A stretch of DNA of 23,374 nt from a virus (Duplodnaviria; Heunggongvirae; Uroviricota; Caudoviricetes). The stretch's first letter is position 1. Every line of letters begins with the position of its first letter. Under the pieces are notes generated by a model, which saw only the letters and a program-made list of their open reading frames with translations, searched no databases and was not told the DNA's origin. Shown piece after piece: positions 12,942-14,255 of the stretch. Made by a program: the position numbers and the translations under genes. Where the stretch lies: the IMG/VR virus record IMGVR_UViG_638341084_000029; one strand, 5' to 3'.

Positions 12942-14255
12942 ATGGCAGTAAAGATTTCAGGTGTACTGAAAGACGGCACAGGAAAACCGGTACAGAACTG
13001 CACAATCCAGCTGAAAGCAAAACGTAACAGCTCCACGGTGGTGGTGAACACCCTGGCCTCAGAAAATCCGGATGAAGCCGGGCGTTACAGCATGGACGTT
13101 GAGTACGGTCAGTACAGCGTTATTCTGTTGGTGGAAGGATTCCCGCCGTCACATGCCGGGACCATCACCGTGTATGAAGATTCTCAACCGGGGACGCTGA
13201 ATGATTTTCTCGGTGCCATGTCGGAGGATGACGTCCGGCCGGAGGCACTGCGTCGTTTTGAACTGATGGTGGAAGAAGCGGCGCGTCACGCTGAGGAGGC
13301 GAAGAAGAATGCCGGAGAGGCGGAGACGTCCGCGAGGAATGCTGGCATATCAGCCAGTCAGGCAGAAGAGAGCGCTGCAAATGCTGACACTTCAGCAGGG
13401 GATGCATCGGAGTCAGCCCGGCAGGCGGCAGAAAGTGCAGCCTCAGCAAAGCAGTCAGAGGATGCGTCCTCGTCCTCGGCCTCTGCGGCCGCTCAAAAAG
13501 CCAGTGAGTCATTACAAAGTGCAACAGATGCTGAGTTGTCAAAAAAGATGGCAGAAAGTGCAGCCGGTAATGCAGCCAGGGATGCAACGACCGCAACAGA
13601 AAAAGCCCGGGAGTCAGCAGAAAGCGCACAGTCAGCGGAACAAAGCAGGATAGCGGCGGAAGAGGCCGTAAACCGAATCCCCACCGTGGTGGGACCTCCC
13701 GGGCCAAAGGGGGAACAGGGGCCCGCGGGTCCTCAGGGGCCGAAGGGTGATAAGGGAGAGCGCGGTGACACCGGCCCTGTCGGGGCAACCGGCGAACGGG
13801 GACCGGCAGGTGATGCTGGTCCGGCAGGCCCGCAGGGGCCGAAAGGTGACAGGGGAGAGCGGGGAGAGACCGGTCTGACGGGAAATGCAGGTCCACAGGG
13901 TCCAAAGGGAGATACCGGTGCGGCAGGCCCGGCAGGCCCACAGGGACCGAAAGGAGAAACAGGTGCGGCTGGCCCGGTGGGGGCAACCGGACCTCAGGGA
14001 CCGAAGGGCGACCCGGGGGAGACACAAATCCGTTTTCGTCTGGGGCCGGCGAGCATTATTGAGACAAACAGCAATGGCTGGTTCCCGGATACAGATGGCG
14101 CACTCATCACCGGACTGACCTTTCTTGACCCCAAAGATGCCACACAGGTTCAGGGGCTGTTTCAGCATTTGCAGGTCAGGTTTGGTGACGGGCCGTGGCA
14201 GGATGTTAAGGGGCTGAATGAAGTGGGCAGTGATACAGGCAGAACAGGAGAATGA
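12942..14255 (+). CDS. stf: side tail fibre-like protein: lambda Stf-like N-terminus, Ala/Ser/Glu-rich region, collagen-like Gly-X-Y repeats, short C-terminal domain
   Basis: ATG at 12942 gives MAVKISGVLKDGTGKPVQNCTIQLKAKRN.., the lambda Stf N-terminal signature; low-complexity A/S/E-rich stretch; about 115 aa of uninterrupted G-X-Y triplets; ends ..GSDTGRTGE. Confidence 0.8.
   Translation: MAVKISGVLKDGTGKPVQNCTIQLKAKRNSSTVVVNTLASENPDEAGRYSMDVEYGQYSVILLVEGFPPSHAGTITVYEDSQPGTLNDFLGAMSEDDVRPEALRRFELMVEEAARHAEEAKKNAGEAETSARNAGISASQAEESAANADTSAGDASESARQAAESAASAKQSEDASSSSASAAAQKASESLQSATDAELSKKMAESAAGNAARDATTATEKARESAESAQSAEQSRIAAEEAVNRIPTVVGPPGPKGEQGPAGPQGPKGDKGERGDTGPVGATGERGPAGDAGPAGPQGPKGDRGERGETGLTGNAGPQGPKGDTGAAGPAGPQGPKGETGAAGPVGATGPQGPKGDPGETQIRFRLGPASIIETNSNGWFPDTDGALITGLTFLDPKDATQVQGLFQHLQVRFGDGPWQDVKGLNEVGSDTGRTGE
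13680..14030 (+). repeat. collagen-like Gly-X-Y triplet repeat region inside the fibre gene
   Basis: Continuous GPPGPKGEQGPAGPQGPKGDKGERGDTGP.. triplets. The reverse-strand reading gives a Pro-rich spurious ORF (13165-14025). Confidence 0.85.

Follow-up and report, generated by a model that had tools for sequence, protein, structure and literature searches.

The stretch of DNA analysed here, IMG/VR virus record IMGVR_UViG_638341084_000029 (23,374 nucleotides; referred to as the window throughout this paper), is the tail end of a lambda-like prophage and carries a gene for a collagen-like side tail fibre at 12942..14255 on the plus strand. The window contains the tape measure gene, the genes of the tail proteins M, L, K and I, a J gene of 1131 amino acids (aa), and lom. 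The gene order 3' of lom is the fibre gene followed by type III effector genes. When one insertion sequence (IS) is left out, the window is 99.6% identical to prophages of enteropathogenic and enterohaemorrhagic Escherichia coli (EPEC and EHEC), such as those of FDAARGOS_1059 and O111:H2 12A. Read from its ATG, the fibre gene encodes 437 aa plus a stop codon, and an alternative GTG start at position 12936 on the same strand would yield 439 aa. The ATG form is identical to RefSeq WP_000279086.1 of O103:H2 strain 12009 (437/437 residues).

The gene very probably encodes a complete trimeric side tail fibre of the EPclA type (EHEC prophage collagen-like protein A), belonging to a lambda-like prophage. 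The fibre is already known, as the protein is in RefSeq and the family was biochemically characterised in 2012, and nothing new is added here on the fibre itself. The additions made by this analysis are modest: the strict pairing of the fibre gene with a small downstream open reading frame (ORF) and the exclusivity of this pair with Tfa, the strong constraint on the 89-aa paralogue of the fibre end domain encoded by that ORF, a tfa relic, and the knockout of the paralogue by an IS3 element. This fibre type is located at the boundary where the lambda-like prophages of EHEC and EPEC bear their type III effector cargo, and it probably helps decide which cells the effector-carrying phages reach.

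Domain Architecture of the Fibre Protein

The N-terminal PfN domain, comprising residues 1-133 (12942..13340, plus strand), matches PF08400 (phage_tail_N) over profile positions 1-133 of 134 with an E-value of 4e-68. The first 160 residues share 75% identity with lambda Stf, in agreement with the initial annotation, in which a lambda Stf N-terminus had been recognised. The core of this domain, residues 1-93, is the tail-docking collar domain and matches the solved collar domain of Ur-lambda gpStf (PDB 9e7m, E 8e-52). No similarity to lambda Stf was detected past residue 160, and the Pf2 repeat profile PF03406 was unmatched in the fibre.

The PCoil part, approximately residues 105-250 (13254..13691, plus strand), is assigned as an Ala/Ser/Glu-rich, alpha-helical trimeric coiled coil on the basis of its composition, its heptad autocorrelation and the published work on EPclA (PMC3368898). 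Residues 136-250 consist of 31% Ala, 20% Ser and 12% Glu, which is the composition first noted for this region, but the region is not the plain spacer that it was taken for: the Ala residues have a heptad periodicity, and their autocorrelation at both lag 7 and lag 14 amounts to 0.39, a value reached in 0 of 2000 shuffles, which is the signal of a coiled coil.

The collagen triple-helix domain follows at residues 251-361 (13692..14024, plus strand; PF01391, E 4e-18) and is composed of 37 Gly-X-Y triplets. The run is uninterrupted, as had been described, and its length is 111 residues rather than about 115. Given the Gly frequency in the rest of the protein, such a run has a chance probability of about 1e-42. 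Proline occupies 18 of the 37 X positions and 22% of the residues are charged, matching published EPclA.

The PfC domain, residues 363-426 (14028..14219, plus strand), is a full-length PF06820 (Phage_fiber_C) domain of 64 residues, covering positions 1-64 of 64 with an E-value of 1e-35. It corresponds to the trimerisation knob and collagen-folding nucleus of EPclA (PMC3368898) and is followed by an 11-residue tail (14220-14252, plus strand). In total, 76 residues lie beyond the collagen region, close to the 75 initially estimated, and the profile search proposed at that time for collagen and fibre C-terminal domains matched both (PF01391 and PF06820). The C-terminus is thus short, as had been noted, but the significance of its shortness had been missed, since it holds a full trimerisation domain and is not truncated. 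Long antisense and +1-frame ORFs also overlap the collagen region; they have no family matches, and were rejected as genes and regarded as mechanical.

Relation to EPclA and Assembly of the Fibre

EPclA was reported to have the architecture PfN-PCoil-Col-PfC and a length of 437 aa, of which PCoil accounts for 116 and Col for 111, and to be present in 8-9 prophages per O157:H7 genome (Ghosh et al., 2012, PMC3368898). The window fibre has the same four parts, lengths and Pfam domains as EPclA (e.g., ECs2717 and ECs0844 of O157:H7 Sakai), and both are positioned after lom in effector-carrying lambda-like prophages. The window copy, which is from a kind of prophage found in O103, O111 and O45 strains, differs by a few substitutions and by a companion ORF that is split by IS3; nothing of substance differs.

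Recombinant EPclA of Sakai is a dumbbell-shaped trimer with a globular C-terminal knob; its PCoil is a trimeric coiled coil, its Gly-X-Y region is a genuine collagen triple helix melting at 42 °C, and EPclA, Col-PfC and PfC alone are each trimeric (PMC3368898). After heat denaturation in vitro, Col-PfC refolds immediately upon cooling (PMC3368898), and therefore PfC nucleates the collagen helix. It follows from the trimerisation and nucleation data of Ghosh et al. that the short C-terminus is a complete domain and not a truncation. By its near-identical architecture, the window fibre is expected to form a trimer with a collagen triple helix as well.

As for the attachment of the fibre, twelve copies of residues 1-94 of Ur-lambda gpStf build a tail collar bearing four trimeric fibres (PMC12617516), and the homology to gpStf implies that the window fibre should attach to the tail in the same way. 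Its PfN domains would then dock the fibre as a tail collar, a proposal well supported by the 75% identity to Stf and by the solved homologue. In the shaft, a three-stranded coiled coil rich in Ala and Ser would lead into a collagen triple helix, as demonstrated for the near-identical protein. The 64-residue PfC knob would trimerise by itself, set the register and nucleate collagen folding from the C-terminus, as observed in vitro for EPclA, and it is also the likely candidate for the receptor-binding end. Self-assembly through PfC would explain how this fibre type does without a Tfa of the lambda type, which is well supported by the all-or-none pattern of genes across the loci surveyed below.

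The principle has parallels among other bacterial collagens. In Scl2 of Streptococcus and BclA of Bacillus, as with PfC, the register and the nucleus of a hydroxyproline-free bacterial collagen helix are provided by a trimerisation domain that is not itself collagen. The nucleating domain of Scl2 is N-terminal, however, and that of BclA is C1q-like with about 130 residues, whereas PfC has 64 residues. No relation between PfC and the Scl2 or BclA domains was detectable in structure-sequence, fold and profile searches.

Absence of tfa and Survey of Related Loci

The collar domains of lambda Stf and the window fibre are homologous, both genes lie downstream of J and lom, and each protein has a proximal coiled coil rich in Ala and Ser. 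Lambda does have the larger Stf and the downstream tfa with which the gene was originally contrasted: Stf (774 aa) bears Pf2 repeats as well as a distal domain resembling gp37, and tfa (194 aa) comes next, whereas the window fibre continues with collagen and PfC, has no Pf2 repeats, and is accompanied by no intact tfa. Searched with a profile of lambda Tfa and related proteins, the window contained no intact tfa, and the sole match was a 34-residue 3' relic at 17312-17422, so that the reported lack of a tfa chaperone gene holds.

For comparison, a survey with PfC and Tfa profiles covered 79 IMG/VR loci with PfN-bearing fibres, the window, two loci from E. coli genomes (L001 and L002) and lambda as the reference. 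A small PfC ORF lies directly after the fibre gene in 28 of the 28 complete PfC-ending fibres with downstream sequence available. A full-length Tfa was found after none of these 28 within up to 6.5 kb of flank; related prophages with the same fibre and an intact tfa, which were looked for as a sign of a recent local deletion, are accordingly missing among these loci. Most Stf-type fibres (800-1250 aa) in the survey immediately precede a Tfa of about 200 aa, and no surveyed locus combines the small PfC ORF with a full-length Tfa. In a scan of complete E. coli genomes, the PfC segment of the fibre occurred at 6160 places in 697 of 5426 genomes and the small ORF at 6398 places in 698 of them, with a median of ten copies per genome. 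In one IMG/VR contig (L010, 3901-4615), a second partial fibre 3' end with a small ORF lies 2.4 kb past the first, a tandem duplication of the module end.

The same module is present in a cultivated phage. Lambda h434 imm21 (OM418627), which has the host-range region of phage 434, carries J, lom, a 437-aa stf that is 95% identical to the window fibre, an 89-aa ORF identical to that of the window at 82 of 89 residues, and then NleB-, NleC- and NleH-like genes. This phage was grown lytically and purified as virions (Feiss et al., PMC9119081); therefore, the module is carried by a working phage without tfa at that position. Of the two possibilities raised initially, the compact fibre type needing no Tfa is the supported one, being the recurrent, complete and experimentally characterised EPclA type (PMC3368898) and not the product of a local deletion.

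The 89-Codon ORF Downstream of the Fibre Gene

The next gene is the 89-codon ORF, split by an IS and followed by effector genes, as had been read from the sequence; NleB2, an NleC fragment, NleH and Cif are encoded downstream. The 5' part of the ORF, codons 1-45, is located at 14257..14392 (plus strand) and begins one base past the fibre stop codon, with a GGAG within the last fibre codons. The 3' part, codons 46-89 plus the stop codon, is located at 15654..15787 (plus strand). When the IS is removed, the rejoined halves (14257-14392 and 15654-15787) encode 89 aa that match PF06820 over positions 3-64 of 64 (E 3e-35), and phrog_576 matches both halves. The intact ORF in O103:H2 strain 12009 is WP_001023455.1. 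The 89-aa protein shares 39% identity with the fibre's own PfC (BLASTP, E 8e-15), and from this and the PF06820 match the ORF is a free-standing paralogue of the fibre end domain. In a family search at E up to 1 it matches PF06820 alone; there was no match to PF02413/Tfa, nor to the Tfa profile. Homology to Tfa-type chaperones, which was to be checked, is therefore not found, and while the position given for the ORF was correct, it is not an unrelated neighbour but a paralogue of PfC joined to the fibre gene by an invariant junction. This translationally coupled paralogue occupies the position of tfa.

A comparable arrangement is known from the Stx2 (Shiga toxin 2) phage Sp5, in which ORF67, a fibre ending in PfC, is followed by ORF68, an 89-aa ORF consisting of PfC only (PMC5155283). 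Sp5 differs in being short-tailed and in having an intact small ORF, and its EPclB fibre, at 645 aa, contains a Pf2 repeat and two collagen domains (PMC5155283). The small ORF of the Sakai phage and that of the window share about 92% identity (H74). EPclB was placed at the tail end of Sp5 by immunoelectron microscopy (Mondal et al., 2016, PMC5155283).

The conservation of this ORF raises the possibility that the fibre does need a dedicated helper, namely the 89-aa PfC paralogue, which would stand in for Tfa, either by assisting assembly or by stacking distally on the PfC trimer as a cap or adhesin; in that case, the fibre of this prophage would have been crippled by IS3. This explanation is the best of the rivals, though a doubtful one. 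The ORF occupies the exact position of lambda tfa, occurs with the fibre at about 1:1 across the 697-698 genomes, and excludes full-length Tfa, as described above. Its junction with the fibre gene, GGAGAATGAcATGAA (stop, one base and ATG, with an internal GGAG upstream), was kept at every junction read. Among 25 intact copies, the pairwise ratio of nonsynonymous to synonymous substitution rates (dN/dS) is 0.06 for the PfC part of the small ORF, with 21 DNA variants encoding 4 proteins, versus 0.25 for the fibre's own PfC and 0.33 for the N-terminal 29 codons of the small ORF. Moreover, the annotators of OM418627 call the ORF a 'tail fiber assembly chaperone', apparently on position alone. Several results speak against a required helper, however. 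Sp5 from which ORF68, the homologue of the 89-aa ORF, was deleted still forms plaques and lysogenises (Mondal et al., PMC5155283), recombinant EPclA trimerises without the 89-aa protein, and purified Col-PfC refolds alone (PMC3368898). The 89-aa ORF also lacks similarity to any Tfa family, and it has been hit independently by at least two ISs (in the window and in phage 06-3462), which suggests that its loss is tolerated.

A second explanation, proposed for ORF68 as a reservoir for varying the fibre tip (Mondal et al., PMC5155283), is that the 89-codon ORF has no protein function and is a mere DNA reservoir for the recombinational swap of the fibre C-terminal domain. The proposal gains from a 92-aa database protein (P0186), a chimera of the small-ORF N-terminal part and a fibre-type PfC C-terminal half, which suggests that the two PfC copies occasionally exchange sequence, or else that the record was misassembled. 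It is nevertheless unlikely. A dN/dS of about 0.06 indicates strong purifying selection, and therefore the small ORF is kept as a protein and is ill-suited to a pure reservoir role; such constraint and the conserved translational coupling would be unexpected for a silent cassette. At the DNA level, identity between the two PfC coding regions is confined to short stretches, which would serve homologous exchange poorly, and the proposers found no frameshift signal (PMC5155283). A programmed frameshift fusing the fibre to the small ORF, which is in the +1 frame, was considered separately and rejected, because no signal for it was found here or by Mondal et al. (PMC5155283).

It is very unlikely that the fibre is a remnant of an ancestral lambda-type Stf that lost its distal part and tfa to effector cargo, the other possibility raised initially, and for the fibre gene itself this is already largely refuted. 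In its favour, the NleC fragment and nleH enclose a 36-codon tfa 3' relic at a distance of 3 kb, comparable relics occur in five other loci, and an element of about 45 bp is repeated after the relic, so that the boundary of tail module and cargo has recombined. Against it, the gene closes with a complete PF06820, the 437-aa length recurs thousands of times and is also that of the lambda h434 imm21 fibre, the protein folds as a dumbbell with a globular C-terminal knob (PMC3368898), and collagen and PfC have no counterpart in lambda Stf and thus form a different distal module rather than a stump.

The preferred explanation, a complete EPclA-type fibre that trimerises through PfC and needs no lambda-type Tfa, has to be weighed against several points. 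EPclA was expressed in BL21(DE3) and JM109(DE3), and these hosts may hold tfa genes of their own, in the DE3 lambda derivative and in cryptic prophages. This is a caveat on Tfa-independence in vivo, for which the sole argument is the in vitro refolding of purified Col-PfC. No report placing EPclA on the virions of long-tailed phages was found in the literature. The low dN/dS of the 89-aa ORF suggests that the fibre may need a partner after all, and the tfa relic at 17312-17422 marks the past passage of Stf/Tfa-type DNA through the locus. AlphaFold2 models of the PfC region and of the 89-aa protein reached pLDDT (predicted local distance difference test) values of 54 and 60, respectively, from alignments of 12 sequences each, a low confidence at which no structural claim on PfC is supportable.

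Tentatively, the 89-aa PfC paralogue might be an unrecognised tail-fibre accessory protein that arose from a duplicated trimerisation domain and serves collagen-type fibres in place of Tfa; it could, for instance, cap the PfC trimer or act on it as an adaptor, and so tune receptor binding or assembly. If this were the case, the window would hold a natural knockout of the paralogue.

Distribution and Structure of the PfC Domain

PfC is a narrow family. When the PfC profile was compared with 1.84 billion representative proteins, 96 matches were obtained, nearly all of them fragments of the same Escherichia proteins. The few remaining matches were short and partial, within large repeat proteins, and were regarded as uninformative: SprB, CarboxypepD_reg and three proteins, of which two match only a partial PF06820 and one (P0238) matches a partial PF06820 and collagen. 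In a scan of one genome per species, PfC was found only in E. albertii and in two contigs resembling contamination. These are short contigs from a Clostridiales metagenome-assembled genome (L086) and from Xanthomonas pisi (L087), whose PfC segments are 93-98% identical to the E. coli fibre and are most likely E. coli contamination. Citrobacter rodentium is also among the database names for PfC. The small ORF was present in 296 records of the phage collection, mostly Stx-converting phages.

What is usable from the low-confidence AlphaFold2 models is a mostly beta content and an N-terminal helix in the 89-aa protein. A Foldseek search of the better model against PDB returned nothing below E = 1. 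When solved structures were searched by sequence, apart from trivial matches to collagens only the N-terminal collar was matched, and PfC had no match.

The IS3 Element, the tfa Relic and the Effector Region

The element that splits the 89-codon ORF is an IS3 of 1258 bp at 14393..15650 on the minus strand, with the target duplication TTA (3 bp) on either side of it, at 14390-14392 and 15651-15653. Its orfA (15286-15594, minus strand) and orfB (14423-15289, minus strand) overlap. The ends were read as TGATCCTACCCA and TGATCTTACCCA, which are imperfect terminal inverted repeats, and the element is annotated as IS3 in matching records. The insertion is recent, because no complete E. coli genome of the collection has IS3 at this site; it has knocked out the 89-aa paralogue and left the fibre gene intact. 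In phage 06-3462 (L083, OP797663, 3655-4964), an IS629/IS1203 element independently interrupts this 89-codon ORF as well, seven codons 3' of the position hit by IS3. A single insertion common to the window and phage 06-3462 was considered and rejected, as both the element and the site are different.

Beyond the small ORF lies a hairpin, ACCGGAG-tccgg-CTCCGGT followed by a T run, at 15805..15830 (plus strand), which was read from the sequence and is unlisted by a consensus terminator scan. It is a probable terminator closing the tail operon ahead of the effector genes, which would be cargo beyond it. Terminator-like hairpins with T runs also lie on either side of lom (12229-12248 and 12904-12925), which fits lom as a separate unit within the late region.

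An element of about 45 bp (…GTTTTTGTTGGCATGCCATGGTGATGTTTGTTAGGAAAG…) at 15823-15865, after the small ORF, recurs at 17516-17558 between the tfa relic and nleH. Many other loci likewise have it 3' of their small ORF. The element may mark a conserved joint of tail module and cargo, or an upstream element shared by nle genes.

The tfa relic itself is the 3' end of a lambda-type tfa, 36 codons plus the stop codon (17312..17422, plus strand), and matches PF02413 (Caudo_TAP) over positions 92-124 of 131 with an E-value of 3.8e-12. It is annotated in NC_013353 as a partial tail fibre assembly protein, and the similar relics of the five other PfC fibres lie 1.8-4.6 kb downstream of them. The presence of the relic among effector genes is a mark of exchange with Stf/Tfa-type modules, DNA of which has recombined into the cargo region, while the fibre itself is not truncated. 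The relic directly abuts nleC, which breaks off at codon 96 and retains positions 1-64 of 251 of PF13678 (16978-17422 for both together); O103:H2 strain 12009 has the same junction.

Further downstream, cif (18691-19539) is intact with 282 codons in the window and is annotated as frameshifted in O103:H2 strain 12009. It is followed by an NleG-family gene (20015-20641, plus strand) and by an ORF of 412 codons (20981-22219, minus strand), for which the matching position in NC_013353 is annotated as NleA. A PEBP-family gene (22898-23374, minus strand) at the end of the window is probably host flank.

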